64,000 bases of DNA, taken from Elusimicrobiota bacterium (lineage in GTDB: Bacteria > Elusimicrobiota > Elusimicrobia > UBA1565 > UBA9628). The notes beneath the pieces are model-generated. The model had not been told where the DNA came from. It did not search any database and was given only the letters and a program-made list of their open reading frames with translations. Location of the stretch: positions 58-64,057 of the forward strand of contig DAIDHI010000080.1 in the NCBI GenBank assembly GCA_027452025.1, written 5' to 3'. Positions 8,847-60,241 of this stretch are shown piece after piece (position 1 is the first letter of the stretch; every line of letters starts with the position of its first letter). Both the position numbers and the translations under genes were made by a program.

Positions 8847-11561
8847 CTATGCGCCTTTGCTCACCTTCTCGAGAGTCAGCCAGCGGTTGGTGCCCGCGAA
8901 CTTTTGGTGCATGCGCGTGCGCGGCTCGCCGTGGGGTGCTCCGAGCTCGGCCACCTGCAAGTCGGCCAGCGCCTCCAGGCCCTTCTTCTTGAACTCGCGC
9001 AGCGAGGCCTCGAGAGCCATGCCCACTGTGCGGAAGGCCAGCAGCGTCGAGAATTGCAGGACGTAGCCGAGACCGCCGAGCTCCTCGTTGGCGATGAGCC
9101 GGCCCTCTTGCTTGGCCTTGCCCCAATGCAGCGAGGGGGAGAGATTGAAGCCCAGCATCTGATCCGGGAAATACTTGTGCACGCCTTGGGCGAAGGCCCT
9201 CGGCCCGTCGATGCCGGTGTCGTTGAACTCGGCCCAAATGACGTCCACGCCCAGAGACGCCGCCTCCAGGGCCCGCGCGATCGCGTGGTCGACGCCCGGC
9301 CCGCGCCCCCCCGGCACGGCGCCGTCCACGGCGTCGGTGCGCGCGATCACGACGAGGTCCGTCTCCGTCGCCTGGGCGGCGGCCTTGACGGCGATGAGCT
9401 TCTCGATCCACTTGTGGGTAGGTACGAGCACCTTGTCTCGCTTGCTGCCGTGATGGGCGATGATGTGGCCGCACGTGCGCTCGGCCGGATCCTGGTCCTC
9501 GAGATGCACGCCGGCGGCGCCCGCGCGGATGAGCTCGCGCGCCAGCGTGAATGTCTGCGTCGGCCCGCCGAAGCCGGCCTCGATGTCGGCGAAGATCGGA
9601 GGCGCGGCCAGGACCTCGCCGTCGCGGTCGTAGAAGTGTCGGTCGCGCGTGCCCTCGATGCCGCGCAGGAGCTCCTGCACCAGCGAGACCATGGAATGTG
9701 AAGGATATATCCCGATGTCTGGATACATGTTGTGGGCGACGGCCAGCTGCCAGCCGCTGGCGTAGATCGCCTCGAAGCCGAGCTCGGTCAGCAGCGACGC
9801 CGTCACGGCGTCGTAGGCCCCCGCCGTGTGGAGGTAGGACTCCGCCGGATCGCTCCGCCGCCGGGCGAAGCGCGCCTTGAGCAGCGCCCTCAGCTTCTGC
9901 GCCGGATGCGTTTTTTCAAGCGGCGCATACATCTTCGCGAACTGCGCCGCGGGATAGGTCCACTTCTTGAAACCTTCGCTGGGAACGGCCGCCGTCTCGC
10001 TGATCATATCTTGGCTCCATTGGCTGGCGCGCTCATAGCGTCGCTCCAGCGCCTCTCTTTGTGCGCGCTCGCCGTTCTGGCGCTGCGCGCGCAGATCCTT
10101 GAAAATCTTCTTCAGCTCCTCGTCGAACCAGCCCGCGACGAGCTCGCGCGTGACGCGCTCTCCCTCCGCGGCCGCGACGGCGTGCCTGATGCGCTGCGCG
10201 ACCATCAGCCGGTAAATCCGGTCCGTCGCCAGATCCTCCATGAAGTTGCCGATGAGGTCGCCGTGCCGGTCGTAGCCTTTGATCATCCGAGCGCCGAGCC
10301 CCGAGAGCACGCCGAATCGATATTCGATCATGGTCCGGATCGCGTCCTTGGTCCCGGCGACGGTGATCGCCCCGATCCCGGTCGGCGCGGGAGTCAGATC
10401 GGGCTTGACCTCGGCGCGCGCGGGAAACGAATGGAGCTGGTTGGGGGCGGGGAATTGGGAAATGGCGGCCTCGTGTTGATCGGGATGCCCGGTCCAAGCC
10501 CCGTCGAAGCCGCAATCCGCTTCATTCTTCTTGTCCGCGGCCAGCCGCTCCATGGCTCGTCCGTTGACCGCGGCATCGCCGCGGTCGGGAAAGAGCGCCG
10601 TCATGCCCCCGATCGCCAGCGCCCCTCGCCGATGGCAGATCTCGACGAGCCGGCGGCGAACATTCTGAAAAAAAGGGATGTCGTGCGGAATCGTGTTACG
10701 GTCCGGCAGGATCCAGCCCGGGTCGGCGAGCTTGAACTCGAGGAGGCTGGCCATATAGTCCCAGCGGCCCAAATTGAGGCCGATCGCGTGTCGGCGAGCC
10801 TCGTAGAGGATCTCCTCGATCTGATAAGCTGCGGGCAGCGACTCGATAAGATACATGATTTTCGTCGTTCCCTCCGGCACGCCGATCGCCGCCTCCATCG
10901 CGGCCAGCGCGTCCGAAAACCACCGCGCCTCGGCGGCCGATTCCACTTTCGGGATGTAGAATCCGAGCTTAGCCTGCAGCCCCGGCGAGTGGACCGCCGC
11001 TTTACGCAGGTCCGCCGTCGGGAAAAAGACCGCGACCATGTCGAAGAGCGAGGCCGACACAATCTCTCCCGGGACGGCTCGCGTTTCGTCGAGATGCAGG
11101 CCGCGGGGGCGGTAATACATAGCCTGAGCGCTCGGCTTGACGCGGGCGGTCTTGCCCGTTTGGGGGTCGGCATAGGCGAGCGTGCCGCGAATGGCCAAGA
11201 CGGTGTTTTCTTGGGCCGTCCGCACGTGCTCCCACTCGGGCGAGATGGAGTCCTCTCCATCCGGCATGCATCCCGGATCGTCGGCGTTGCACATGCCGAC
11301 CAGGATCTTCGCGTTGTCGGCCGGACCGGTGATCTGATTGCGCTGGTCCTTGGCCCAGTCCGGCAGCCGGATCTTCCAGGCCCCGCTCGTCGCCTCCGAT
11401 TCCGGGAGGTAGTCGGGCATCCGTCCTGCGCGCGCGGACGCCAGGGCCGCGCGGCGCTGCTGCAACAGGGCCTGGCGCCTAGGCTCGAAGCGCCTGTGGA
11501 GAGGCAGCAGGAACCCGCGCAAGTCATCCGGAACAATCGCGACGCTTTGTGTCGTTTTCAT
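8847..11561 (-). CDS. bifunctional malate synthase A / isocitrate lyase fusion (MS N-terminal, ICL C-terminal)
   Basis: Residues about 1-540 align with AceB (ITGP, RGLHL, GLNLGRWDY, ETLPA-like LIESLPA). Residues about 590-904 align with AceA (YASGWQLAVA, ADIEAGFGG, GVHLEDQ, TCGH in place of KKCGH, ARTDA). Single uninterrupted 904-codon frame. Confidence 0.85.
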   Translation of the reverse strand: MKTTQSVAIVPDDLRGFLLPLHRRFEPRRQALLQQRRAALASARAGRMPDYLPESEATSGAWKIRLPDWAKDQRNQITGPADNAKILVGMCNADDPGCMPDGEDSISPEWEHVRTAQENTVLAIRGTLAYADPQTGKTARVKPSAQAMYYRPRGLHLDETRAVPGEIVSASLFDMVAVFFPTADLRKAAVHSPGLQAKLGFYIPKVESAAEARWFSDALAAMEAAIGVPEGTTKIMYLIESLPAAYQIEEILYEARRHAIGLNLGRWDYMASLLEFKLADPGWILPDRNTIPHDIPFFQNVRRRLVEICHRRGALAIGGMTALFPDRGDAAVNGRAMERLAADKKNEADCGFDGAWTGHPDQHEAAISQFPAPNQLHSFPARAEVKPDLTPAPTGIGAITVAGTKDAIRTMIEYRFGVLSGLGARMIKGYDRHGDLIGNFMEDLATDRIYRLMVAQRIRHAVAAAEGERVTRELVAGWFDEELKKIFKDLRAQRQNGERAQREALERRYERASQWSQDMISETAAVPSEGFKKWTYPAAQFAKMYAPLEKTHPAQKLRALLKARFARRRSDPAESYLHTAGAYDAVTASLLTELGFEAIYASGWQLAVAHNMYPDIGIYPSHSMVSLVQELLRGIEGTRDRHFYDRDGEVLAAPPIFADIEAGFGGPTQTFTLARELIRAGAAGVHLEDQDPAERTCGHIIAHHGSKRDKVLVPTHKWIEKLIAVKAAAQATETDLVVIARTDAVDGAVPGGRGPGVDHAIARALEAASLGVDVIWAEFNDTGIDGPRAFAQGVHKYFPDQMLGFNLSPSLHWGKAKQEGRLIANEELGGLGYVLQFSTLLAFRTVGMALEASLREFKKKGLEALADLQVAELGAPHGEPRTRMHQKFAGTNRWLTLEKVSKGA

Positions 11562-11637
11562 GGTCGCCTAGCGTAAGAAATACCGCCGCGGGACTCAACG
11601 GAGGATCGGATGCGGGAGAGTAAAAGTTTCTTGACGG

Positions 11638-12396
11638 CTAGATGGCGATGCGAAGGAGGTCGCGCGCCAGGCCGACCCGACGCCGACCGCGCACGAGGGC
11701 GCGCAGCTCGGCCTCCGAGCGTTCCGACAGGTGGGTCAGCAGCCCGCGCCGGCACGCGGACGCGCCAAGAGTCGCCAAGGCCAAGGGAGGCGTCAAATGC
11801 CCGGCCGCGGGCGAAAGAGAGGACAGGGTGCACTCGAGAAGGAAGAGATCGGCCTCGGCCGCGAAATCGGCCAATCCCGGATCGTAGCCGGCGTCTCCGG
11901 AATAAACAAAGCTCTTCCTCTTATACGAGAGCCGGTATGCCAGGGCCGGCGTCGGATGCGGGACCGAGCGCGCCGCGACGCGCCAGTCCGCGCCTCGCGC
12001 GTCGCGGCCGGCAGAGAGTTCCTCGACCTCAAGGCGGTAGCCCCGGGGCGACAGCCAGGGGCGATAGGCGCCGCGCAAATCGTGGAGGAATCGCGCGAAA
12101 TCCCGCGGGCCCCAGAGCCGCAGCCGCCGGCTCCTCGGGCGGGCCTCGTAGCGCAGGAAGAAGAGGAGCGCCGCCAAGTCCCCTACGTGGTCGGGGTGGC
12201 GATGCGAGATGAAGACGTCGGTCACGCGCGCCGGGTCCAGGCCCGCGCGCGCCATCTGCCGGACGGCGCCGAACCCTAGGTCGAAGAGCATGATCCGGCC
12301 GTCCAGCACGACGGCGTTGGCCGCGGCGTTGCGTACCGCAGCTTTCGGCCGCCGCGGCGCGAACGCGCTGCCTGATCCCAAGATGACCAATTCCAT
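11638..12396 (-). CDS. MBL-fold metallo-hydrolase
   Basis: ISHRHPDHVGDL (HxHxDH) and downstream His/Asp ligands. Confidence 0.75.
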   Translation of the reverse strand: MELVILGSGSAFAPRRPKAAVRNAAANAVVLDGRIMLFDLGFGAVRQMARAGLDPARVTDVFISHRHPDHVGDLAALLFFLRYEARPRSRRLRLWGPRDFARFLHDLRGAYRPWLSPRGYRLEVEELSAGRDARGADWRVAARSVPHPTPALAYRLSYKRKSFVYSGDAGYDPGLADFAAEADLFLLECTLSSLSPAAGHLTPPLALATLGASACRRGLLTHLSERSEAELRALVRGRRRVGLARDLLRIAI

Positions 12397-12417
12397 GGGA
12401 CAATGTTAGAATAACAA

Positions 12418-12476
12418 GGTGTCAGACTTTCACTTTTCACTTACCTTTAATAAGTGGAAAGTGAAAGTCTGACACC
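12418..12476. repeat. 59-bp AT-rich near-perfect inverted repeat (23-bp arms, 11-nt spacer) in the divergent intergenic region upstream of acnA
   Basis: GGTGTCAGACTTTCACTTTTCAC ... GTGGAAAGTGAAAGTCTGACACC. One mismatch between the arms. Confidence 0.8.
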
Positions 12477-12518
12477 GATCGGACCGGTCGCCGTTAAGTC
12501 GGCTCCAGGAGAAACTCC

Positions 12519-15269
<2,751 letters not shown>

Positions 15270-36389: not shown

Positions 36390-36426
36390 GCGGCCTCTCC
36401 GCTCGCGCGGAGAGGCCGCTCATTTT
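36390..36426 (+). terminator. rho-independent terminator hairpin (shared region with the 3' end of antisense RNase P RNA)
   Basis: GCGGCCTCTCCGC-tcgc-GCGGAGAGGCCGC followed by TCATTTT. Confidence 0.6.
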
Positions 36427-36799
36427 AGGGAGAGCCTGTACCCCGAATTCTGTTCCCCCCTCGCGGAGGGCGAGGATCATTTCTCTGATGCGGCTACCGA
36501 GGAGCCGCCCCGCCTCTCGGCGGGACCGCGCGGGCCGCGCGAGCTCCCACACTGCCTTGCTCCGGACGGGGTTTGCCGTGACGCCGTCCCTCGCGGGACG
36601 GCCGGTGGGCTCTTGCCCCACCTTTTCACCCTTGCACTCCGCACGGTCTGCGGAGTGCGGTTGTTCTCTGTGGCACTTTCCGTCGGCGAAGCGTATGGTC
36701 TTCGCCTCCCCGCCTTTCGACGGGCGTCCTGCCCTGCGGAGTTCGGAAGTTCCTCCCCCCGCGACGCGTCGCGGAAGGCGATCCCCCGGCTCTCCCTAA
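36424..36799 (-). ncRNA. rnpB: RNase P RNA (bacterial type A)
   Basis: Minus-strand sequence has the P1 pairing AGGGAGAGCC / GGCUCUCCCU. It has GGAGGAACUUCCGAACUCCGCAGGGCAGG (P4/P5 region), GGAAAGUGCCACAGAGAACAACCG, AAGGGUGAAAAGGUGGGGCAAGAGCCCACC, CCGUCCGGAGCAAGG and ACAGAAUUCGGGGUA. These are collinear with E. coli M1 RNA conserved regions. Confidence 0.85.
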
Positions 36800-37565: not shown

Positions 37566-38084
37566 ATGGCGGCCTCAAAAGTCGTTTTGCTCGTCGGCCA
37601 CGGGGGAATCCCCAAGGATTGCCCGCCGCAGCTCGTCTCCGAGTTCAAGCGCGAGGAGGCCCGGGCGGCCGGAAAGCCCTCCGCGCGCCTCCTCGAGCTC
37701 GACGCCCGCCTGCGCCAATGGCCCCGGACGCCGGAAAACGACCCCTATAAGCCCGGCTTGGAGGCCGTGGCGGCCTCCCTCGCCGCGGCCCTGCCGGAGC
37801 ACGACGTCGTCACCGCCTACAACGAATTCTGCGCGCCAAGCCTCGAGCAGGCCTTCGACGAGGCCGTGGCGGGCGGCGCCCGCCAGATCATTGTGATCAC
37901 CACCATGTACACGCGCGGGGGCATCCACAGCGAAAAGGAAATCCCAGCGATCCTGGAGGGCCTGCGCCGGCGCCATCCGGGAGTCGAGGCCCGCTACGTC
38001 TGGCCCTTCGATGCCGCGGCGATCGGGGAGTTCCTGGCCCGGGAAGTGCGCCGTACCGAGACGGACGCGCCGGCCCCGGCATGA
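37566..38084 (+). CDS. sirohydrochlorin chelatase CbiX-like
   Basis: VVLLVGHGGIPKD and second-half His region typical of small CbiX/SirB chelatases. Only the last 173 codons of the long track ORF are used. Confidence 0.65.
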   Translation: MAASKVVLLVGHGGIPKDCPPQLVSEFKREEARAAGKPSARLLELDARLRQWPRTPENDPYKPGLEAVAASLAAALPEHDVVTAYNEFCAPSLEQAFDEAVAGGARQIIVITTMYTRGGIHSEKEIPAILEGLRRRHPGVEARYVWPFDAAAIGEFLAREVRRTETDAPAPA

Positions 38085-39865
38085 AGCTCTGGCTGACCTT
38101 GGCCGCGCTCCTGGCAGCCGCGACGCCCGCGCAAGCTTTCTTCTCCCACGCCCGAAAGGCCGCTTCCCCGCCGGCCGCGCCCGCGCCGCCGCCCGAACCC
38201 CTCGATCCGCTGACGACGGCCGAGATCGACGGCGCGGCGCAGGCGCTGCGCGACTCGCGGCTTTTCAGCGATTCCGCCGTCTACCTTTCCATCGCCCTCC
38301 AGGAGCCGTCCAAAGACGAGCCGGGCGCGGGCAAAAGGCTCGCCGCCGCCGTCATCTATGACCGCGCGCGCCGCGAGACCTCGGAGGCCGTCGTCGACGT
38401 CGCCAACCGCAAGCTCGAGTCGTGGCGCCTGGTCCCCGGCATAGAGCCCGGGCTTTCCGACGAGGAGCTCTCGCGGGCGCGGAAACTGGCGTTGTCCGAC
38501 TCCCGCTTCAAGGCGGCGATGGCGGCGCGCGGCCGCAAGACCTGGGACGATCTCGAGGTCGACGGCTGGTCGCCCGGGCCGCTCGACGCGGCGCGCAACT
38601 CGCCGCACCGGGTGGCGCGTCTGGACTTCTACGTGCCCGCGGCGCGCGGCCGCGTCCTCATCGACGGGCTGCAGGCGCTGGCCGACCTGACCGAGGGCAC
38701 GGTCGTCGAGCTGCTCGACGCCGGCGGGCCGCCTCTGCCGCCGCCGGCCCAGGCCCAGGCCCCGGCCCCCGCGCCGCCGCCGCAGCCGGCCAAGAAGAAG
38801 AAAAAACGGGAGGAAGCCCCCGCGCCTGCGGCGCCCTCCTACCCGTTCGAGGTCGCCGGCCACGAACTGCGCTGGCGAGGATGGACGCTGCGCTACGCGC
38901 TGACGCCGCGCGAAGGGCTCGTCCTCTACGAGGTCTCGCGCGACGGCCGGGGGATCGCCGACCGGGCGAGCCTTTCCGAGACGTTCGTCGTCTACGGCGA
39001 CGCGCGGCCGCAGTGGGCCGACCGCTCGGTTTTCCAGGAAGGCGAGCGCGGCCTGGGCCTGCGCGATATCCCGCTCGATCCCGCCCTGGACGCTCCCTCG
39101 CAAGCCGCCTTTTTCGACGAACCGGGCCCGGGGCCGGACGGCCGGGGCCGGATGCTGACGCGCGCCGTCGCCGTCTTCGAGCGAGACGCCGGCCGCGGAG
39201 CCGTCCGCCGCCTCAAGGAGCTCGTCCTCGAATCCAAGGCGCAGGCCGGACCCGAGACCTACGTCACGCGCTGGACCCTGGGCGACGACGGCGAGCTCGA
39301 CGCCGGCGTCGACGTCTCGCAAGACGACCCGGAGGCGCCGCCGCACCAGCATTTCTTCAATTTCAGGGTGGATTTCGACGTCGACGGCAGCACCGACTCG
39401 GTGGCCGAGCTGGAGGCCGCGCCCGGACGGATGACCCTGCTGTCGACGCCCCTGGAAAACCGCTCCCAGGCCCGTCGCGACGTCGACGAGGCGGCGGGCC
39501 GCCGGTGGCTCGTGACGGCGTCCTCCCCCTCGGCCGACGCCTCCCGAGGCTACCTGATCATCCCGGAGGGCAACGCGGCGCCGCTTTCGCCCGCCTTCTC
39601 GCCCGCGCGCCGCGCCGCGCCCTTCATCGGTCACCAGCTTTGGATCACGGCCTACCGCCCCGACGAGCTTTACGCGGCCGGAGAGTTCCCGGGCCGCCGC
39701 GCGCGCGCCGGAGGCGTCGAGCGCTGGACCCAGCGCGACGAGCCGATCCGCGACGCAGACCTCGTCGTCTGGTACACGCTGGGAGCCACGCATCTGCCCA
39801 GGGCCGACGGCTCCGCCCGCCGCCCGCTTTCCTGCCGCCTGCGCCTGGTCCCCGCCGGGCGCTAG
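38081..39865 (+). CDS. copper amine oxidase-like secreted protein (TPQ consensus absent)
   Basis: HQHFFNFRVDFDVDG matches the CuAO copper-His / RLDxDVDG signature. No T-x-x-N-Y-(D/E)-Y topaquinone motif at the expected position. Poly-Lys/Pro low-complexity insert. Confidence 0.5.
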   Translation: MKLWLTLAALLAAATPAQAFFSHARKAASPPAAPAPPPEPLDPLTTAEIDGAAQALRDSRLFSDSAVYLSIALQEPSKDEPGAGKRLAAAVIYDRARRETSEAVVDVANRKLESWRLVPGIEPGLSDEELSRARKLALSDSRFKAAMAARGRKTWDDLEVDGWSPGPLDAARNSPHRVARLDFYVPAARGRVLIDGLQALADLTEGTVVELLDAGGPPLPPPAQAQAPAPAPPPQPAKKKKKREEAPAPAAPSYPFEVAGHELRWRGWTLRYALTPREGLVLYEVSRDGRGIADRASLSETFVVYGDARPQWADRSVFQEGERGLGLRDIPLDPALDAPSQAAFFDEPGPGPDGRGRMLTRAVAVFERDAGRGAVRRLKELVLESKAQAGPETYVTRWTLGDDGELDAGVDVSQDDPEAPPHQHFFNFRVDFDVDGSTDSVAELEAAPGRMTLLSTPLENRSQARRDVDEAAGRRWLVTASSPSADASRGYLIIPEGNAAPLSPAFSPARRAAPFIGHQLWITAYRPDELYAAGEFPGRRARAGGVERWTQRDEPIRDADLVVWYTLGATHLPRADGSARRPLSCRLRLVPAGR

Positions 39866-51676: not shown

Positions 51677-51751
51677 TGGTGGGCAGTATAGGATTCGAAC
51701 CTATGACCCCTGTCGTGTGAGGACAGTGCTCTACCGCTGAGCTAACTGCCC
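51677..51751 (-). tRNA. tRNA-Val (anticodon CAC)
   Basis: Minus strand GGGCAGUUAGCUCAGCGGUAGAGCACUGUCCUCACACGACAGGGGGUCAUAGGUUCGAAUCCUAUACUGCCCACCA. 7-bp acceptor stem, GGUUCGAAUCC T-arm, anticodon loop CUCACAC, encoded CCA. Confidence 0.9.
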
Positions 51752-51803: not shown

Positions 51804-51832
51804 TTGACAACCCAAGTTCTCCCTTATTAGTA
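51804..51832 (+). promoter_or_regulatory. sigma70-like promoter (TTGACA-N17-TTAGTA) in AT-rich region upstream of the regulator/cluster
   Basis: TTGACA at 51804-51809. TTAGTA at 51827-51832. Local AT-rich island in a 68% GC genome. Confidence 0.4.
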
Positions 51833-51862
51833 TTTTCAGAACTTATTGAAACAATAGAAACC

Positions 51863-52378
51863 ATGAGCGACAGGCTTAAGGCGGCGAAGGCGCGGTTCGT
51901 GTCCACCTGGGGCGAGATGGCGTCCCATTGGGGCATCAACAAGACGATGGCGCGCATCCATGCGCTGCTCATCGCCTCCGACGCCGCGCTCTCGGTCGAC
52001 GAGATCATGGCAACGCTCTCGATCAGCCGCGGTAACGCCAGCATGAACCTGCGGGCGCTGATGGACTGGGGCCTGGTCAGGCGCGTTTCGGTGGGCAGCG
52101 AGCGGCGCGAGTATTTCCAGAGCGAGAAGGACGTCTGGAACATGTGCTGCCGCATCGCGCGCGAGCGCAAGAAGCGGGAGATCGAGCCCGTGATCGGCGC
52201 TCTGGAGGAATGCCTGCGCGAAGCCGGGGAAGGCCAGGACTCGGCGGCCTTCCGGCGCCGGACCAAGGAGCTCTTGGAGCTGGTCAAGACCCTCGATTTC
52301 GTGCTCGGCAAGGTCGCCGCGCAAGAGAAGAACGCCGTCATGCCGCGCGTGCTGACGCTGCTCAAGGCCATGTCATGA
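51863..52378 (+). CDS. MarR/GbsR-family transcriptional regulator
   Basis: Winged-helix pattern (SVDEIMATLSISRGNASMNLRALMDWGLVRRV) as in GbsR/MarR-like regulators. Confidence 0.65.
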   Translation: MSDRLKAAKARFVSTWGEMASHWGINKTMARIHALLIASDAALSVDEIMATLSISRGNASMNLRALMDWGLVRRVSVGSERREYFQSEKDVWNMCCRIARERKKREIEPVIGALEECLREAGEGQDSAAFRRRTKELLELVKTLDFVLGKVAAQEKNAVMPRVLTLLKAMS

Positions 52379-53319
52379 CTCCCGCTTCTTTATTAAAGGT
52401 GGAGGACTCGCTCTCCCGCGTTCGCGCGGGCCTGGAGAGCCGCGCCCTGCGCATCGAGGGCCGGGTCGGCCGGGAGCTGGCGGCCTTCGTGGCCCGCCCG
52501 GGAAAGATGCTGCGCTCGCGCTTCTGCCTGCTTTTGGGCGGCGCGCTGGGCGTGCCGCGGGACAAGGCCGAGGCGGCCGCCCGGGCGCTGGAGCTGGTGC
52601 ACAACGCCAGCCTCCTCCATGACGACTGCATCGACGAGGCCACGCTTCGCCGCAGCCGGCCCACGCCCAACGCCCTTTTCAACATCCCGACGGCGCTGCT
52701 CATCGGCGATCTGGCTTTTTCCCAAGGCCTCGAGGAGGCCGTGGACGTTTCGCCGAGCGCGGCCAAGCTCCTGGCCGCGGCGGTGCGCGAGATGTCGGTC
52801 GGGGAGCTTCAGGAGGAGTTCCTCAAGGGCGACGCCGACTTGACCGTCGACGCCTACATCGGCGTCTGCTCGCGCAAGACCGGCGCGCTCTTCGAGTGGG
52901 CCGGGGCGGTGCTCTCGGAGCTGAGCCCCTTTCCCCACGAGCAGGCGGACCCGCCGCGGCTGGCCTGCGCGGCCGGCATCCTCCTTCAGGTCGTCGACGA
53001 CATCCACGACTACACCCTGGGCGAGCGGGTGTCGGGCAAGGACGAGGGCCAGGACGTCAAGAACCGGCGGCTGACGCTGCCCTGCCTCTACGCCCTGGCC
53101 GACGCGCGGGCCCGCGAGGAGTTTCTCAAGCTTTGGCGAGGCGGCGACGCGACGGGAGTGGGACGGTTCCTCGTCGAGGGCGGGTTCGTCGCGAAGGCGC
53201 GCGGGAAGGGGCGGGAGCTGGCCGACTCCATGACGGCGATGGCGCGCGCCCTGCCCTGCCGCGCCGAGGCCTCCCAATTGGCCTTCTTCATCGACCTGCT
53301 GGTCAAGAGGGAATTTTGA
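52375..53319 (+). CDS. polyprenyl diphosphate synthase (trans-isoprenyl diphosphate synthase family)
   Basis: First Asp-rich motif LLHDDCIDE and second VVDDIHDY. ATGA overlap with the regulator stop. Confidence 0.85.
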   Translation: MTPASLLKVEDSLSRVRAGLESRALRIEGRVGRELAAFVARPGKMLRSRFCLLLGGALGVPRDKAEAAARALELVHNASLLHDDCIDEATLRRSRPTPNALFNIPTALLIGDLAFSQGLEEAVDVSPSAAKLLAAAVREMSVGELQEEFLKGDADLTVDAYIGVCSRKTGALFEWAGAVLSELSPFPHEQADPPRLACAAGILLQVVDDIHDYTLGERVSGKDEGQDVKNRRLTLPCLYALADARAREEFLKLWRGGDATGVGRFLVEGGFVAKARGKGRELADSMTAMARALPCRAEASQLAFFIDLLVKREF

Positions 53320-53320
53320 G

Positions 53321-53761
53321 ATGTCTTACGAGGCCCTGGTCAAGAAAGCGTGGGCGAGCGGGACGTTCAAGCTCGACGAGGCCGAGGCCGGAAAGGCCGA
53401 TCCGTCGGCGGCCGTCAGTCGCGAGGCCGTGCGCCGGGAGATGGAACAGATCGCGGAGAGGGAGACCTGGGACGCCGCAAGCTGCTTCTCCGCCCATAAA
53501 GAGGGAATCATGAAACTAGCTCCGTTCGTGAAGTTCCGTGAAGAGAAGTTCGGCGCCGTGCTCTTTGAGACGCGCTCGGAGAAGGTCTATACGCTCAGCC
53601 CGAGCGGCGCCGCCGTCGTGCGGGAAGTGGTCGCCGGGGCCACTTCCAGCGACCTGCCGGCCAGGCTCAAGCAGAAGTTCGAGGACCCCACCGGGAAGAT
53701 GGAGCAGGAAGCGGCAAGCTTCCTGGCCCAGCTCAAGGACAAGGGCCTCGTCGTCGAGTAG
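53321..53761 (+). CDS. PqqD/MftB-like RiPP recognition element protein with about 65-aa N-terminal extension
   Basis: C-terminal VKFREEKFGAVLFETRSEKVYTLSPSGAAVVREVVAG...AASFLAQLKDKGLV matches the PqqD/MftB pattern. SD aagaggga before the ATG. Confidence 0.65.
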   Translation: MSYEALVKKAWASGTFKLDEAEAGKADPSAAVSREAVRREMEQIAERETWDAASCFSAHKEGIMKLAPFVKFREEKFGAVLFETRSEKVYTLSPSGAAVVREVVAGATSSDLPARLKQKFEDPTGKMEQEAASFLAQLKDKGLVVE

Positions 53762-53767
53762 GGCGCC

Positions 53768-54739
53768 GTGACCGCGCAAGCTCCCGAAAGCGCGCCGCAG
53801 ACGGGCACCGAGGATCTCGGCGCCCCGCTCTACGTCGCCTGGCAGATCACCAACGAGTGCAACCTGGCCTGCCTACACTGCATCGAGGAGTCCGGGCCGG
53901 GAAAGGCCTTCAAGGACGAGCTGACCACCGAGGAGGCTTACCGCCTCATCGACCAGCTCGCGCAAGGCGAGGTGCCCTACGTCTCCTTCTCGGGCGGCGA
54001 GCCGATGGTCCGGCCGGACTTCTTCGGCATGGTCGAGAGAATCACTCGGGGCGGCGTCGGGCTCAAGATCGAGACCAACGGCCATTACCTAACCGCTGAC
54101 AACTGCCGCCGCCTCAAGGACCTGGGCGTCAAGGCCGTCCAGGTCTCCCTCGACGGCGCCAGCCCCGCCTCGTTCAACAAGATGCGGGTCCACGGCCGCT
54201 TCGAGTCGGCGCTGGAAGGCATCGGCCGGCTGCGCGAGGCGGGCGTGCCGATCGAAATCAACTTCGTGCCGGCGAAGTTTAATATCCGCGAGATCGGCGC
54301 CGCCGTCGACTTGGCCTACCGGCTCGGGGCGTATTCGTTCTATACCGGCAAGCTGATGTATACCGGCAACGCCGTGCGCACCTGGGGCATCACCGCCCCC
54401 GACGAGGCGGAGTATCCCGCCTACTTCGCCGCGCTCAAGGAGAAGGCCAAGGAGTACGAAGGCCGCATGCGCGTCTACTACCACGAGATGGGGCTGCTCG
54501 AGGAGCTGCGCTACCGCCTGAAAAACCCCGCCGCCCTCTTCATCGTCCTGCCCAACGGCAAGGTCAAGCTCATCAACGCCCTGCCCTTTATCTGCGGCGA
54601 CCTGCGCCGCCAGAGCCTGGGCCAGGTCTGGCAGAGCTTCCAGCTCGCCTGGAAAAGCCCGCGGGTCAGCGCCTTCATCGACGAGCTCGCCGCCGACCCC
54701 TCGATCCTGTCTCGTCTGCACCGCTGGGAGGAGGTCTAG
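53768..54739 (+). CDS. radical SAM enzyme (PqqE/MftC/NirJ-like N-terminus, no SPASM cysteines), paralog 1
   Basis: APLYVAWQITNECNLACLHC CX3CX2C. SFSGGEP and KIETNG motifs. Single Cys in the C-terminal half. Confidence 0.8.
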   Translation: MTAQAPESAPQTGTEDLGAPLYVAWQITNECNLACLHCIEESGPGKAFKDELTTEEAYRLIDQLAQGEVPYVSFSGGEPMVRPDFFGMVERITRGGVGLKIETNGHYLTADNCRRLKDLGVKAVQVSLDGASPASFNKMRVHGRFESALEGIGRLREAGVPIEINFVPAKFNIREIGAAVDLAYRLGAYSFYTGKLMYTGNAVRTWGITAPDEAEYPAYFAALKEKAKEYEGRMRVYYHEMGLLEELRYRLKNPAALFIVLPNGKVKLINALPFICGDLRRQSLGQVWQSFQLAWKSPRVSAFIDELAADPSILSRLHRWEEV

Positions 54740-54745
54740 GCGGAC

Positions 54746-55633
54746 ATGAGCCTCGTCGGCAAGGCCGCGGCGCTGGTGCGCTACCGCTTCTTTCTCTACG
54801 CGGGCCTCCTGCCCTATCTGCTGGGCGCGGCCTGGGCCTACGGCGTGGACCGGCAGTTTCGGCCCGGCGTCTTCTGGCTCGGCCTGCTCGGGATCTTCCT
54901 CGCCGTCGTCGGAGTCGAGAGCTTCAACGAGTATTTCGACGCGAAGATGGGGACCGACCGGGTCTTCAATCCCGACGCCGACGAGAACATCCCGGAGTGG
55001 ATGTTCTCGCTCGGCGTGGCCGCCTTCGCGCTGGCCGCGGCGGTCGGCTTCTACCTGGCCTGGGAAGGCGGCTGGCCCGTGGTCCTCTATACTCTGCTCG
55101 GCGGCGCCGCCGCCGTCTGGTACGTGGGCCCGCCCGTGCGCTGGGTCTACCGGGGCCTTGGCGAGGCCGTGATCGGGCTGTCCTACGGCCCGTGGATGAC
55201 GCTGGGCTCGGTGCAGCTGCACACGCACCGTTTTTCCTGGGGCGCGCTGGCCGCGTCGCTCGTCCCCGGCCTGCTGATCATGGCGCTGGCCGTGGTCAAC
55301 AACATCCCCGATTATCATCAGGACCGGCTGGTCGGCAAGAGGAACCTCGTCGTGAGGCTGGGCCGGGAGAAGGGACGGCTGCTCTACCTCGCCTTGTCGG
55401 GGCTGGGCTTGGCCGTGATCGTCGCCGGAGCGGCGGCGGGGACGTTCCCGCGCCTTTGCCTGCTGGCCGCGCTGCCCGGCGCCGCCCTTTGGTGGGCGAG
55501 CCTGCGCGCCGGCCGGGACACCTGGGACACGCCCCGCGCCTTCCTGCCGGCCATCAAGAGCATCGTGCAATGCTACGCCTTGACGACGCTGATCTTCGCC
55601 TTGGCGGTGGCGTTCGGAGCGCGCCTGGCATGA
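54746..55633 (+). CDS. UbiA-family aromatic prenyltransferase
   Basis: 8-9 TM helices. Asp-rich motifs NEYFDAKMGTD and NNIPDYHQD. Confidence 0.85.
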   Translation: MSLVGKAAALVRYRFFLYAGLLPYLLGAAWAYGVDRQFRPGVFWLGLLGIFLAVVGVESFNEYFDAKMGTDRVFNPDADENIPEWMFSLGVAAFALAAAVGFYLAWEGGWPVVLYTLLGGAAAVWYVGPPVRWVYRGLGEAVIGLSYGPWMTLGSVQLHTHRFSWGALAASLVPGLLIMALAVVNNIPDYHQDRLVGKRNLVVRLGREKGRLLYLALSGLGLAVIVAGAAAGTFPRLCLLAALPGAALWWASLRAGRDTWDTPRAFLPAIKSIVQCYALTTLIFALAVAFGARLA

Positions 55634-56592
55634 GGATCGATTCCCTGAGCGCCCCGGCGATGGTCGCCTGGCAGCTCACGCGCGACTGCAACCTCGCCTG
55701 CCTGCACTGCTGCACGGACTCCGCGCCGGGCCGGGCGCTGCCCGGCGAGCTGCCGCGCGAGAGAGCCCTGTCTCTGGCGCGCGAGATCGCCGAGGCGGGC
55801 GTGCCTTACGCGCTGATCGCCGGCGGCGAGCCGAGCTTGGTCTCGCATTTCGGCGAGGTCTGCGCCGCGCTTTCCCAGGGCGGCGTCTGGCTCAAGGTCG
55901 AGACCAACGGCCAGAGCTTCGACGTCTCGGCGCTGCGCGGCCTGCGCGTGCGCTCGGTGCAAGTCTCGCTCGACGGCGCGACTCGGCGCGTCTACGCCCG
56001 ACAGCGGCCGGGCGGCGACCTGGAGAAGGCCCTGGCCTGCGGCCGCGCCGTGCGCGCCGCCGGGCTGCCCCTGGAGATCACGTTCGCCCCCACTCTCCTC
56101 AACATCGACGAGGCCGGCGCCGTCATCGACTTGGCCCTGGAGCTCGGAGCCTTCCGCTTCAACACCGGAAGGCTCATGCGATTGGGCACCGCCGCCAAGC
56201 TCTGGCAGCGCCTGGAGCCTTCGCAGGAGCGCTACGAAAGGTTCCTCGCGCTGCTCGAGCGGCGCGAGCGCGAGCTGGCCGGACGCCTGGAGCTGTGCTT
56301 CCGGCCGTTTTCGCTGCCCGAGGATGCCCGGGCCCTCAGACGCGAGCCCCCGGGGACCTTGCTGATCCTCCCCGACGGCCGCGTGAAAGTGGCCGCGCCG
56401 CTGCCCTACACCTGTTTCGACGTGACGAAACGTCCGTTTCTCGAGGCGTGGGACGCGTATCGCAAGTCTTTCGGCGATCCGCGCGTCCTGCGCGCCTTCG
56501 AGCGCCTCGCCGCCGACCCCGCGTCGTCGGCGAAGGCCAATGAGTGGGTCGACCTGGAGTCCGTCGCCTTCGATTTGCCGGCCGTGGTCTGA
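55629..56592 (+). CDS. radical SAM enzyme, paralog 2
   Basis: MVAWQLTRDCNLACLHC. IAGGEP, KVETNG. ATGA overlap with the UbiA stop. Confidence 0.8.
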
Positions 56593-56612
56593 CCGGCAGA
56601 CAGGAGTCAAGC

Positions 56613-56735
56613 ATGAACGACCAGAAGAAGACCGTGACCGTCGTGAAGGCCGAGCCGAAGCTCGTTTGGCAGACCCCCTCCCTGGAGGAGGTCTCCGATC
56701 GGGTGATGGCGCAGCCTTACATCCGGTTCACGTGA
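56613..56735 (+). CDS. 40-aa candidate precursor peptide (PqqA-like leader)
   Basis: MNDQKKTVTVVKAEPKLVWQTPSLEEVSDRVMAQPYIRFT. caggag SD 7 nt upstream. Located between radical SAM paralogs 2 and 3. Stop overlaps GTG of paralog 3. Confidence 0.5.
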   Translation: MNDQKKTVTVVKAEPKLVWQTPSLEEVSDRVMAQPYIRFT

Positions 56736-57700
56736 CGCACGGGAGAGGGGCGTCCGTGGGCGACTACGGCGCCCCTCTCTTTCTGGCCTGGCAGCTGACC
56801 AACCGCTGCACGGGCAGCTGCCTGCACTGCTGCGAGGAATCCGGGCCCGACAAGGCTTGGCCCGACGAGATGAGCCGCGAGCAGTGCTTGTCGCTGGCCC
56901 GGCAGATCGCGCGCATGGGCGTGCCTTACGTGGCCTTCGGCGGCGGCGAGCCGATGGGCTCGCCCCACGTCTGGGAGATCTTCGAGATCCTGGCGCGCGG
57001 CGGCGTCGAGATCAAGATCGAGACCAACGGGCTGCTCCTGGACGACGCGGCCTGCGACCGGCTCAAGGCCTTGAACGTCGCCTGCGTGCAGATCTCCATC
57101 GACGGGGCGACGGCCGCCGTTCACGAGGGCCTGCGTCCCGGCTCCGGCTACGCGCCGGCCTGGGAGGCGATCGACCGCCTGGTCTCGCGCGGCCTGGGTC
57201 CCGAGCTCGTTTTCATCCCCACCAAGCTCAACGTCTCCGGCGCCGTCGCCGTCTATGAGCAAGCGGCGCGGCGGGGCGTGCGCACGTTCGTGACGGGGCC
57301 GCTCATGCGCCTGGGGCGGGCCGCCGCGGCCTGGGAGGCCCTGGCCTGCTCCGAGGAGCAATGGGCCGCCGCGGCCGAGGCCCTGCGGCAGGCCTCGCTG
57401 CGCGAAAAAGGCCCGCGCCTGGCGCTCTATCCTTGGGGCATCCAGGCCGAGATGAAGACCCGCGCCGAAAGCCCGCAGGCCATGGTGCTGGTCGTGCCCA
57501 ACGGCCGGGTCAAGCTCCTCAACGCCCTGCCCTTCGCCGCCGCCGACCTCAAGACCGAGACGCTGGCCGCGGCCTGGCCGAAGGTCGCCGCCGCCTGGCG
57601 GCGGCCCGAGGTCCAGGACTTCGTGCGCCGCGCGCAAAGCGACCCCGGTCTTCTGCGCCACGCCAACGAGTGCTGGGACGTGGCCCTCGCCGGCGCCTAA
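56731..57700 (+). CDS. radical SAM enzyme, paralog 3
   Basis: APLFLAWQLTNRCTGSCLHC. FGGGEP, KIETNG. GTG start overlapping the peptide stop (GTGA). Confidence 0.75.
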
Positions 57701-57744
57701 AACTCGCTGCGACGGGCGGCAAAACTGCTATCCTGAGACGTCGC

Positions 57745-58191
57745 ATGGCGGCTCTCTTTCCTCACGGCTGGATCCATTACTTGGCGGGCGGCCTGCTCAT
57801 CGGCTGCGGGGTCTCGCTGATCTATCTCTGCACCGGCGTGGCCGCCGGCACGAGCTCTTTTTTCAGCGCGCAGTGGTCCTGGTTCTCGCGCCTGGGCTTT
57901 TTTAGGCAGGAGCGCTGGCGCGAGGAACGCGGCTGGCGGCTGATCTACGCCGCCGGCCTGGTCGCCGGAGCGCTGCTTTGGCGGCTCGAGACCGGCGTCT
58001 GCCTGACGACGTCCGTGGAGCCGCGCAGGCTCCTCGTCGGCGGCCTGCTGGCCGGCTTCGGTGCGCGCCTTTCGGGCGGCTGCACGGCCGGCCACGGCAT
58101 CTGCGGCCTCGCCTCTCTCAAGAAGGAGTCTTTCGTGGCCGTTCCCGTCTTCCTGCTCACGGCGATCCTCGTGGCGAGGCTCCTGCCGTGA
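57745..58191 (+). CDS. YeeE/YedE-family membrane protein (sulfur-compound transporter half)
   Basis: LSGGCTAGHGICG signature. 4 TM. Confidence 0.7.
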   Translation: MAALFPHGWIHYLAGGLLIGCGVSLIYLCTGVAAGTSSFFSAQWSWFSRLGFFRQERWREERGWRLIYAAGLVAGALLWRLETGVCLTTSVEPRRLLVGGLLAGFGARLSGGCTAGHGICGLASLKKESFVAVPVFLLTAILVARLLP

Positions 58192-58598
58192 AGCGCGCCG
58201 CCGCGGCGCTCTTGGGCGGCGTCCTCTTCGGCCTGGGCCTGGCCGTTTCCGGCATGGTCCGGCCCGAGACCGTCCTCGATTTCCTCCACCTGCGCGACAT
58301 GGGCCTTTTGCTCGTGCTCGGCGGGGCGGCGGGCGTCAGCCTCCTCGCCTTCCAGCTCGCGCCGCGGCTGCTCGGCCGGCCGGCGTTCGGAGGAAGCTTC
58401 GAGCCGCATCCCGGGCGCCTGAGCGGACGCACCTTCGCCGGCGCGGCGATCTTCGGGGCGGGCTGGGGCCTGTGCGGAGTCTGCCCGGGGCCGGCCGTGG
58501 CGGGCCTGGGCGCGGGCCTGACGGCGCTCTTGTGGTCCGTCGCCGGGCTCGCGCTCGGCGCCTGGCTGCACGGGCTCTATCAAGAGCTGGCCGGCTAG
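58188..58598 (+). CDS. YeeE/YedE-family membrane protein (second half)
   Basis: GWGLCGVCPG signature. GTGA overlap with the preceding gene. Confidence 0.7.
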   Translation: MKRAAAALLGGVLFGLGLAVSGMVRPETVLDFLHLRDMGLLLVLGGAAGVSLLAFQLAPRLLGRPAFGGSFEPHPGRLSGRTFAGAAIFGAGWGLCGVCPGPAVAGLGAGLTALLWSVAGLALGAWLHGLYQELAG

Positions 58599-59860: not shown

Positions 59861-60241
59861 ATGCCAATCACCACAGATCGTCAGACGTCCGTCGCGGGAG
59901 CCGTGGACTATTTCCGCGCCAAGCTCCAGTTCGAGACGACGCCGCACCAAGTCAAGGCCGCCGTCGAGCATGGCGACATCGTGCTCCTCGACGTGCGCGA
60001 CGCCGAGTCCTACAAGGCCGAACGCATCCCCGGCGCCAAGAACGTCCCCATGACCGAGCTCGAGAAGCACCTCAAGAGCCTGCCCAAGGACAAGACCCTC
60101 GTGACCTACTGCTGGAACATCACCTGCGCCATGGCGCCCAAGGCGGCCCTCATGCTGGCCGAGAAAGGCTTCCAGGTCCAGGAGCTCGTCGGCGGCCTGG
60201 AGGAATACCGCAAGAAGTTTCCCACCGAAAAGGCCAAGTAG
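59861..60241 (+). CDS. rhodanese-domain sulfurtransferase
   Basis: AGGAGG SD. VLLDVRDAESYKAERIPGAKNVP. Active-site loop CWNITC. Confidence 0.8.
   Translation: MPITTDRQTSVAGAVDYFRAKLQFETTPHQVKAAVEHGDIVLLDVRDAESYKAERIPGAKNVPMTELEKHLKSLPKDKTLVTYCWNITCAMAPKAALMLAEKGFQVQELVGGLEEYRKKFPTEKAK

Follow-up and report, generated by a model that had tools for sequence, protein, structure and literature searches.

PQQ and mycofactocin are, to our knowledge, the only free redox cofactors made from ribosomal peptides, and neither is lipidated. In the ComX/ComQ and cyanobactin F-type prenyltransferase systems, a ribosomal peptide receives an isoprenoid; these systems use soluble ComQ (with a prenyl synthase fold) or ABBA-fold enzymes, short C5-C15 donors, and hypervariable peptides. 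Here we analyze a gene cassette in a 64,000-nt stretch of DNA from an uncultured Elusimicrobiota bacterium (positions 58 to 64,057 of contig DAIDHI010000080.1, assembly GCA_027452025.1; hereafter the window). It encodes a polyprenyl diphosphate synthase, a PqqD-family protein, three radical S-adenosylmethionine (SAM) enzymes (rSAM1, rSAM2, and rSAM3), a UbiA-superfamily prenyltransferase, and a 40-residue peptide (Table 1). We propose, with moderate confidence, that it is a cassette of the type that makes a peptide that is ribosomally synthesized and modified post-translationally (RiPP) and that its product would derive from the invariant core of the peptide, bear a polyprenyl chain, and be bound to the membrane, most likely as a lipid-soluble redox cofactor or electron carrier distinct from menaquinone. 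An initial annotation of this DNA had suggested a single undescribed system that unites RiPP logic with quinone-type prenylation, and the linkage of the genes across phyla and the invariance of the core support that suggestion.

We compared thirty Elusimicrobiota loci from species-representative genomes, eleven recovered by exact-protein look-ups, and two divergent variants (L042 and L044). The gene order was constant in every locus of sufficient length (polyprenyl synthase-PqqD-rSAM1-UbiA-rSAM2-peptide-rSAM3, 52375-57700 in the window), a recurrence that places the arrangement far beyond chance. The named relatives of rSAM3 were all from Elusimicrobia, with orthologues 60-100% identical in the regular loci, and the seven-gene order was kept also in L042 and L044, in which the rSAM3 orthologues were 43-49% identical. 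Exact look-ups with rSAM1 of the window and with protein P0001 returned no record. The initial annotation had described an array of ten same-strand genes; all ten open reading frames (ORFs) were found on the plus strand (51863-58598), the family affinities predicted for them were borne out by Pfam search, and the motifs were present as claimed. Seven of the ten proved to be a conserved core, but the MarR gene and the two YeeE/YedE genes lie outside it. MarR immediately preceded the core in about half of the Elusimicrobiota loci (8 in the species-representative set and 5 of 10 places in the look-up set), was missing from L001, L036-L038, and L040, and is an accessory or optional gene of the system. 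The YeeE/YedE pair was rejected as a part of the system, as homologues were absent from all 40 related Elusimicrobiota loci. Since MarR comes and goes between loci and the YeeE/YedE pair is not kept with the array, the functional unit comprises seven genes rather than ten. The flanks in the other Elusimicrobiota loci were syntenic housekeeping genes (purH, ligA, nusB, the riboflavin (rib) operon, and PPK2), and no conserved transporter, protease, or immunity gene was found in the core or the conserved flanks of these loci. Each cluster had one precursor gene. This, together with the syntenic housekeeping flanks and a conserved core free of transporter, immunity, and protease genes, makes the cassette cofactor-like rather than antibiotic-like.

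The peptide encoded in the window reads MNDQKKTVTVVKAEPKLVWQTPSLEEVSDR followed by VMAQPYIRFT, i.e., a leader of the form W-x-x-P-x-h-E-E-V-S-x-R and an invariant 10-residue core, and GGAG is located 7 nt upstream of its ATG. In the 21 distinct DNA versions compared, none of the last 11 codons (RVMAQPYIRFT) had a nonsynonymous change, and seven of them varied synonymously; upstream of the core, a W-x-x-P-x-(L/M/I/V)-E-E-V-(S/T) motif was conserved in the leader. This codon pattern indicates that the small ORF is a translated, strongly constrained precursor under purifying selection. A single exact peptide sequence was found on at least 149 contigs, and the protein database held 56 clusters of the peptide, each unnamed or labeled "hypothetical". 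The core was unaltered in L042 and L044, although their enzymes had diverged to 40-50% identity. The 61 motif-matching ORFs of loci L041 onward comprised 52 with VMAQPYIRFT, 6 with IMAQPYIRFT, and one each with ILAQPYIRFT and AEPYIWCRVC, along with one spurious match; in these loci the residue before the canonical core was always K or R, and no variant, not even the divergent second ORF of L048, had lost the tyrosine of the PYI motif. Five precursor variants searched at E ≤ 10 gave no Pfam or NCBIfam match above threshold. The lone trace of a peptide family was a sub-threshold PqqA match (PF08042) of one homologue, confined to its W-x-K-P leader (E = 0.089, 13.4 bits versus 21.1), and the window peptide itself had no PF08042 match.

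The PqqD-family protein is a predicted peptide chaperone or RiPP recognition element (RRE) and was conserved in all loci. Its PqqD domain (aa 79-144) is preceded by an N-terminal extension of ∼78 aa, and on none of the models for named PqqD subfamilies in NCBIfam did the protein reach the cutoff (22.4 bits versus 33 for the MftB model). The PqqD proteins of L042, L048, and L050 (83-110 aa) lack this extension, which contains several invariant residues in the Elusimicrobiota proteins. The initial annotation had made its reading depend on the conservation of the small ORF and the RRE, and both were present in homologous loci wherever the sequence extended far enough. The cassette therefore has the generic layout of a RiPP cluster, in which a gene-encoded precursor with a leader and a conserved core adjoins an RRE and tailoring enzymes.

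An exhaustive profile search returned intermediate relatives, one of which (P0328, locus L048) belongs to a rearranged cluster with two precursor-like ORFs, PqqD, one radical SAM enzyme, and UbiA. The two precursor-like ORFs, on a single short metagenome contig, are in tandem (57-206 and 246-377) and carry ILAQPYIRFT and AEPYIWCRVC, the latter keeping only P-Y-I. At ≥57% identity, the family of P0328 comprises more than 120 members, of which the named ones are from Planctomycetota, Phycisphaerales, Omnitrophota, and Aminicenantia. In a metagenome-assembled genome (MAG) of Planctomycetes (L050), the cassette (9380-12943) encodes a peptide (...WQKPKFEDVSGKVMAQPYIRFT), PqqD, a single radical SAM enzyme, UbiA, and the polyprenyl synthase. 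Eighty further metagenome loci, where long enough, always had PqqD upstream and UbiA downstream of the radical SAM gene, often with the synthase next. Peptide, PqqD, one or more radical SAM enzymes, UbiA, and usually the synthase are linked across at least four phyla despite differences in gene order and radical SAM number. The neighborhood survey that the initial annotation had called for thus found the peptide together with UbiA and radical SAM genes across phyla, and confinement of the system to Elusimicrobiota was rejected, as the same cassette and core occur in Planctomycetota, Omnitrophota, and Aminicenantia. Two tandem cassette-type radical SAM genes were observed in three loci from outside Elusimicrobiota (L086, 4229-5218; L093, 11037-12047; L095, 9735-10685); these pairs look like independent duplications, and they cluster together in a neighbor-joining (NJ) tree.

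Such linkage bears on whether ordinary menaquinone tail genes (menA and a polyprenyl synthase) merely lie beside an unrelated radical SAM RiPP cluster. Genes for MenA-like enzymes and synthases are widespread housekeeping genes, and in other phyla the synthase gene is sometimes not next to the others (e.g., in L067, L070, L088, and L092), but UbiA is interleaved between radical SAM genes with a 4-nt overlap and adjoins a radical SAM gene in all loci of the four phyla despite other rearrangements. Moreover, the cassette UbiA fails the MenA cutoff that a true MenA on the same contig (L097, see below) passes. We consider a chance neighborhood very improbable.

The three radical SAM enzymes of the window are 37.5-41.5% identical to one another (37.5% for rSAM2 versus rSAM1), and all matched PF04055 with 68-92 bits against a gathering score of 29.5. 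The cysteines of the CX3CX2C motif were conserved in 27/27, 28/29, and 34/34 orthologues of rSAM1, rSAM2, and rSAM3, respectively. Beyond the cluster ligands C31, C35, and C38, only C113 and C276 were conserved among 27 rSAM1 sequences; in rSAM2 and rSAM3 the motif is CX3CX2CC, and C118 and C314 are further conserved cysteines of rSAM3. Each paralogue has two conserved cysteines outside the SAM-cluster motif, and the single-enzyme family of the other phyla likewise has two (C225 and C291). Pfam returned no SPASM domain (PF13186) for any of the three, which places them outside the SPASM/twitch group. Because only two further cysteines are conserved and there is no SPASM match, these enzymes cannot bind the auxiliary clusters of PqqE, MftC, AhbD, and the sactisynthases, and they are not PqqE-like enzymes of the SPASM type. 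The fastest-evolving paralogue is rSAM2, with 17% of its positions invariant versus 34-35% in rSAM1 and rSAM3. The start of rSAM3 is uncertain, as public gene calls begin 0-24 nt downstream of the peptide stop and the GTG overlapping this stop is an alternative.

Curated families gave distant matches, the best score of each radical SAM enzyme of the window being less than half of its cutoff. The best NCBIfam matches of rSAM1 were AhbD (TIGR04545, 147.5 bits versus 500) and then NirJ2 (132.5 bits, with NirJ cutoffs of 500-650), and rSAM2 and rSAM3 scored ≤83 bits on the AhbD/NirJ models. The initial annotation had held that membership in a defined family such as AhbC, AhbD, NirJ, or MoaA would speak against a RiPP; no radical SAM enzyme of the cassette reached those cutoffs. 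A futalosine-type function was rejected because neither MqnC nor MqnE was among the best 25 NCBIfam matches listed for each enzyme at E ≤ 0.01. An alignment-based AlphaFold2 model of rSAM3 (predicted local distance difference test score of 90.9) gave SkfB, MoaA, PqqE (6c8v), and SuiB as top Foldseek matches, and a PDB profile search with rSAM3 found SkfB (1e-24), PqqE (3.6e-13), and also BlsE. These affinities point to oxidative chemistry on a peptide or a tetrapyrrole. In a rough NJ distance tree without support values, all of the peptide-linked enzymes formed a single clade of their own, and the three Elusimicrobiota paralogues appeared to have arisen by duplication within that lineage, with the L042 and L044 variants represented in each. 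A single ancestral enzyme would have been triplicated in Elusimicrobiota, and, because one enzyme serves the same core elsewhere, the triplication may represent subfunctionalization rather than three different reactions.

The cassette resembles the PQQ system in its short precursor, in the W-x-x-P-type leader that is presumably read by a PqqD-fold protein, in radical SAM enzymes of the same structural lineage as PqqE, and in the cofactor-like conservation of a peptide with a tyrosine in its highly conserved core. In contrast to PQQ, the core has no Glu-X3-Tyr (and no Glu at all), the radical SAM enzymes lack SPASM auxiliary clusters, and their scores on the PqqE model (TIGR02109) were 90.1, 52.4, and 47.1 bits for rSAM1, rSAM2, and rSAM3 versus a cutoff of 381. 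Furthermore, PqqB, PqqC, and PqqF are missing from the cassette, and PQQ is soluble and unprenylated, whereas the cassette includes an integral UbiA enzyme and a polyprenyl synthase. The likeness to mycofactocin lies in the MftC model (TIGR03962), the best curated match of rSAM2, rSAM3, and the single enzyme of the other phyla, in the separately encoded RRE, and, according to our proposal, in modification at the very C-terminal end of a short peptide to yield a redox cofactor. Nevertheless, the MftC scores (126.3 bits for rSAM1, 82.8 for rSAM2, and 111.5 for rSAM3) remained below the cutoff of 265, the SPASM cysteines are absent, the peptide ends in PYIRFT rather than Gly-Val-Tyr, no MftD, MftE, or MftF is encoded in the flanks, and the decoration would be prenylation rather than glycosylation.

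The closest radical SAM relatives outside the cassette (31-40% identity, ∼310-325 aa) are encoded in hemE-hemH-rSAM-hemY and hemE-rSAM-hemH operons and are probably heme-pathway enzymes; none reaches a curated cutoff. Like the cassette enzymes, they lack the C-terminal cluster cysteines, and AhbD provides a precedent for oxidative decarboxylation; in contrast to the cassette enzymes, AhbD, NirJ, and these relatives have no peptide, PqqD, or UbiA gene as neighbor. Examples are the SPASM-less enzymes of 310-324 aa in the hem operons of L041 (1276-5690, an Actinomycetota MAG) and L045 (1139-4087), which could be oxygen-independent enzymes of the coproporphyrin-dependent heme pathway. A more distant relative (35% identity) was observed in L046 (9001-13724). 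Its cluster, of the classical RiPP-like kind, also encodes a 236-aa PqqD protein, a B12-binding radical SAM protein, and an ABC transporter, but no UbiA.

These relatives raise the alternative of a tetrapyrrole substrate, with AhbD/NirJ-like enzymes remodeling heme side chains, UbiA prenylating or esterifying the macrocycle (compare heme O and chlorophyll synthase), and the peptide and PqqD acting as chaperone or regulator. The top curated matches of rSAM1, the heme operons, and the weak ChlG/BchG matches of UbiA fit this alternative, as do NirDL/AhbAB-like, uroporphyrinogen methyltransferase/synthase, and HemL-like genes that flank the cassette in at least seven loci. It is nonetheless rather improbable: it leaves the invariant precursor-like peptide, the PqqA-like leader, and a dedicated PqqD in every locus unexplained, UbiA scores 109 bits for MenA versus 36 for ChlG, the rSAM2, rSAM3, and single enzymes match MftC best, and the AhbD/NirJ scores are all less than one third of the cutoffs.

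The prenyltransferase of the window was assigned to the UbiA superfamily by PF01040 (Table 1) and by two Asp-rich motifs, FNEYFDAKMGTD and NNIPDYHQDRLVGKRNLVV. In 27 orthologues, 41% of the positions were invariant, and the MenA-style motifs N-E-Y-F-D-x5-D and N-N-I-P-D-x3-D-x3-G-K were invariant or nearly so. At E ≤ 0.01 the only NCBIfam matches were MenA-type models (best, NF004751 with 109.3 bits versus 264, and TIGR00751 with 63.5 versus 102.15) and weak ChlG/BchG models, and the sole PDB sequence match was human UBIAD1 (8djk). The protein was below every curated MenA cutoff, and the L050 enzyme reached 80.2 bits on TIGR00751. On L097, where the cassette has no adjacent synthase of its own, the cassette UbiA scored 60.8 bits and a second UbiA protein, 7 kb away, scored 127.2 bits, which passes the cutoff of 102.15; these scores mark the cassette UbiA as a separate paralogue, and the cassette product is probably not the menaquinone of that organism. 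The canonical MenA and a polyprenyl synthase (11563-13482) lie downstream of this cassette, behind AsrAB/sulfhydrogenase-like genes. The idea that the cassette UbiA is simply the housekeeping MenA is disfavored by this contig.

The polyprenyl synthase, a member of the trans-isoprenyl diphosphate synthases (PF00348, two DDxxD motifs), had sub-cutoff matches to encapsulin-cargo, heptaprenyl, solanesyl, nonaprenyl, and octaprenyl synthases as its best NCBIfam hits. Its Asp-rich motifs are LLHDDCID and VVDDIHD, of which DDCID and DDIHD were conserved in orthologues. The residues at -5 and -4 before the first DDxxD are small (A and S), presumably as in medium- and long-chain enzymes, and we take the product to be a medium or long chain. 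The prenylation module is predicted to be of the quinone type. It shares with menaquinone biosynthesis the MenA/UBIAD1-like enzyme with its Asp-rich motifs, the pairing with a medium-/long-chain-type trans-prenyl synthase, and, in other phyla, nearby quinone-dependent complexes; it differs in that it is linked to no further men or mqn genes and that UbiA is always tied to the precursor peptide, PqqD, and a radical SAM gene. Compared with what is generally known of ComX and the cyanobactins, the cassette has an integral-membrane UbiA, a long-chain-type synthase, and an invariant core.

Outside Elusimicrobiota, at least 10 loci have the cassette directly downstream of, and on the same strand as, a complete nqrABCDEF operon. 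In L050, NqrB and NqrD passed the NCBIfam equivalog cutoffs, NqrC, NqrE, and NqrF were narrowly below (281 bits versus 295 for the NqrF-type subunit), and NqrA was far below. RNF as the upstream complex was rejected because NqrB and NqrD pass the NQR cutoffs and the NqrF-type subunit comes near its own. The NqrA-like subunit of L050 (3239-4651) has, at its C-terminus, the kind of 4Fe-4S dicluster region that typifies RnfC, which suggests an NQR/RNF intermediate form. Downstream of the cassette, 9-13 loci have a response regulator and histidine kinase pair; further downstream are NapC/NirT and multiheme cytochromes, or NrfD with a 4Fe-4S subunit and an ArrA-like molybdoenzyme (1300 bits versus a cutoff of 1600). 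NQR, NapC/NirT, and NrfD-type enzymes reduce or oxidize membrane quinones, and these respiratory neighbors are the strongest, though indirect, hint on function.

In the mechanism that we propose, the precursor of ∼40 aa would be translated first, and the PqqD-type recognition protein would bind its leader (W-x-x-P-x-L/M/I-E-E/D-V-S-x-K/R). The C-terminal decapeptide, (V/I)(M/L)AQPYIRFT, would be presented to the radical SAM enzyme or enzymes, which fall in the MftC/AhbD/PqqE neighborhood without an auxiliary Fe-S cluster. A radical oxidation might follow at the tyrosine of P-Y-I and/or at the free C-terminus, likely as a C-C cross-link or an oxidative decarboxylation; MftC and AhbD, the nearest named relatives, are both oxidative decarboxylases. 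The MenA/UBIAD1-like UbiA would attach a long polyprenyl chain, made by the dedicated synthase, to the resulting aromatic group, and unlinked proteases may trim the peptide. A more specific version of this proposal, which we offer only tentatively, is a peptide-templated, oxygen-independent lipoquinone: the PYI tyrosine would be cross-linked or oxidized, polyprenylated, and excised, and the product would be used with NQR, NapC/NirT, and NrfD in anaerobic Planctomycetota, Omnitrophota, Aminicenantia, and Elusimicrobiota.

Several points weigh against a polyprenylated redox carrier. The proposed chemistry is deduced wholly from sequence, and UbiA-family enzymes are known to us to act on small molecules only, with none known to accept a peptide-bound substrate. 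Because the cassette lacks a protease, an oxidoreductase, and a methyltransferase, the release and maturation of a free quinone are unaccounted for. The heme-operon outgroups and the Ahb-like neighbors in at least seven loci are equally compatible with a tetrapyrrole link, and the Elusimicrobiota flanks are housekeeping rather than respiratory. Finally, the canonical MenA on L097 means that the product is not simply the menaquinone of that organism and that a redox role is not required. A quinone-like prenylated product is accordingly a suggestion that is strengthened by the respiratory neighbors elsewhere and tempered by the canonical MenA on one contig.

These points lead to a further alternative, namely that the product is a prenylated lipopeptide without redox function (e.g., a membrane-anchored signal, a part of the envelope, or a factor that assists NQR-type complexes or their assembly), in which the peptide is retained and the chain serves only as an anchor, in loose analogy to prenylated ComX. 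A retained peptide would fit the invariance of all ten core residues, rather than one or two, and the lack of a protease in the cassette; the response regulator and histidine kinase pair behind the cassette and the coexistence of MenA on L097 are also in its favor. We regard it as unlikely, however: signal and envelope peptides normally diverge between phyla, but Elusimicrobiota and Planctomycetota share the same core; there is no conserved exporter; the prenyltransferase belongs to the quinone (MenA/UBIAD1) type and is paired with a synthase of the long-chain type; and the neighboring enzymes reduce quinones or oxidize quinols. The polyprenylated redox carrier is the product that we favor.

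No cassette enzyme reached the cutoff of a named NCBIfam family, and there is no curated family for the peptide. A full-text literature search found no description of the system, its coverage of subscription journals being limited so that an earlier description is possible; a paper on groundwater Elusimicrobia mentions neither the cluster nor quinone genes in its text and supplements. We regard the combination of a RiPP or peptide-derived-cofactor pathway with UbiA-type prenylation as new, with an unprecedented set of enzymes around a core that is invariant across phyla. If the tentative lipoquinone version of our proposal is correct, the product would be a lipoquinone of ribosomal origin, the first of its kind, and would join PQQ and mycofactocin as the third redox cofactor derived from a peptide. 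The shared decapeptide core, its constant linkage to a MenA-like enzyme, and its repeated placement beside NADH:quinone and quinol-dependent respiratory complexes suggest that a component of anaerobic electron transport that is widespread has gone unnoticed, or at the least that these lipidated RiPPs form a new class. Metabolic reconstructions may miscount cassette UbiA genes as menA. The family also offers tractable radical SAM enzymes that would work on peptides without SPASM clusters, and the minimal system of five genes is directly testable by heterologous expression.

Table 1 Features of the cassette and of other parts of the window (scores in bits)
Feature	Position	Strand	Evidence or remark
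Sigma-70-like promoter candidate, TTGACA-N18-TAGTAT	51804..51833	+	10/12 matches; upstream of the MarR gene
MarR/GbsR-like regulator, 171 aa	51863..52378	+	Pfam MarR_2, 29.2; CudC, 44.9 versus cutoff of 218
trans-Polyprenyl diphosphate synthase, 314 aa	52375..53319	+	PF00348, 140.8; two DDxxD
PqqD-family protein, 146 aa	53321..53761	+	PF05402, 37.8 versus 23.4, aa 79-144
N-terminal extension of the PqqD-family protein	53321..53554	+	
Radical SAM enzyme 1 (rSAM1), 323 aa	53768..54739	+	PF04055, 92.1; CNLACLHC
UbiA-superfamily prenyltransferase, 295 aa	54746..55633	+	PF01040, 83.1 versus 34.2
Radical SAM enzyme 2 (rSAM2), 320 aa	55630..56592	+	PF04055, 68.4; CNLACLHC
Precursor peptide, 40 aa	56613..56735	+	GGAG ribosome-binding site; codon-level constraint; no Pfam/NCBIfam family
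Radical SAM enzyme 3 (rSAM3), 322 aa if GTG start	56732..57700	+	PF04055, 85.1; CTGSCLHC
Split YeeE/YedE-type sulfur transporter halves (Sulf_transp/DUF6691)	57745..58191 and 58188..58598	+	Pfam
Rhodanese gene	59861..60241	+	
tRNA-Val(CAC)	51677..51751	-	
Malate synthase-isocitrate lyase/PEP mutase fusion ORF, 904 aa	8847..11561	-	
Aconitase gene	12519..15269		
B12-binding radical SAM protein, 840 aa	30630..33152	-	
RNase P RNA, class A	36423..36797	-	182.5
Copper amine oxidase gene	38081..39865	+	

The window has a base composition of ∼68% G+C. Of the four 4-nt start/stop overlaps in the initial annotation, ATGA at 52375 and GTGA at 58188 were exact, whereas the other two had to be shifted, ATGA to 55630 (from 55629) and GTGA to 56732 (from 56731); the remaining junctions between genes of the array are spacers of 1-44 nt, as read from the sequence. 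The promoter-like site, which the initial annotation gave as TTGACA-N17-TTAGTA, is listed in Table 1 in the form read here. Two promoter-type sites, including this one, were found versus 0.3 expected in shuffled sequence. Loci without MarR must use another promoter. The tRNA-Val(CAC) gene is directly upstream of the promoter region and divergent from the cassette. Beyond the other end of the cassette, the split YeeE/YedE pair consists of a C-half and an N-half/DUF6691 part joined by the GTGA overlap, with the rhodanese gene 1.3 kb further on; since the pair is conserved with the cassette in no related locus, these genes probably form a separate sulfur-handling module.

Elsewhere in the window, the 904-aa ORF fuses an N-terminal malate synthase with C-terminal isocitrate lyase/PEP mutase domains and would place both glyoxylate-shunt enzymes in one polypeptide; the aconitase gene adjoins it. 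The window also encodes a B12-binding radical SAM protein unrelated to the cassette and a class A RNase P RNA. Copper amine oxidases make a tyrosine-derived quinone in situ and require O2, and the presence of a gene of this O2-requiring family suggests that the host is probably not a strict anaerobe.

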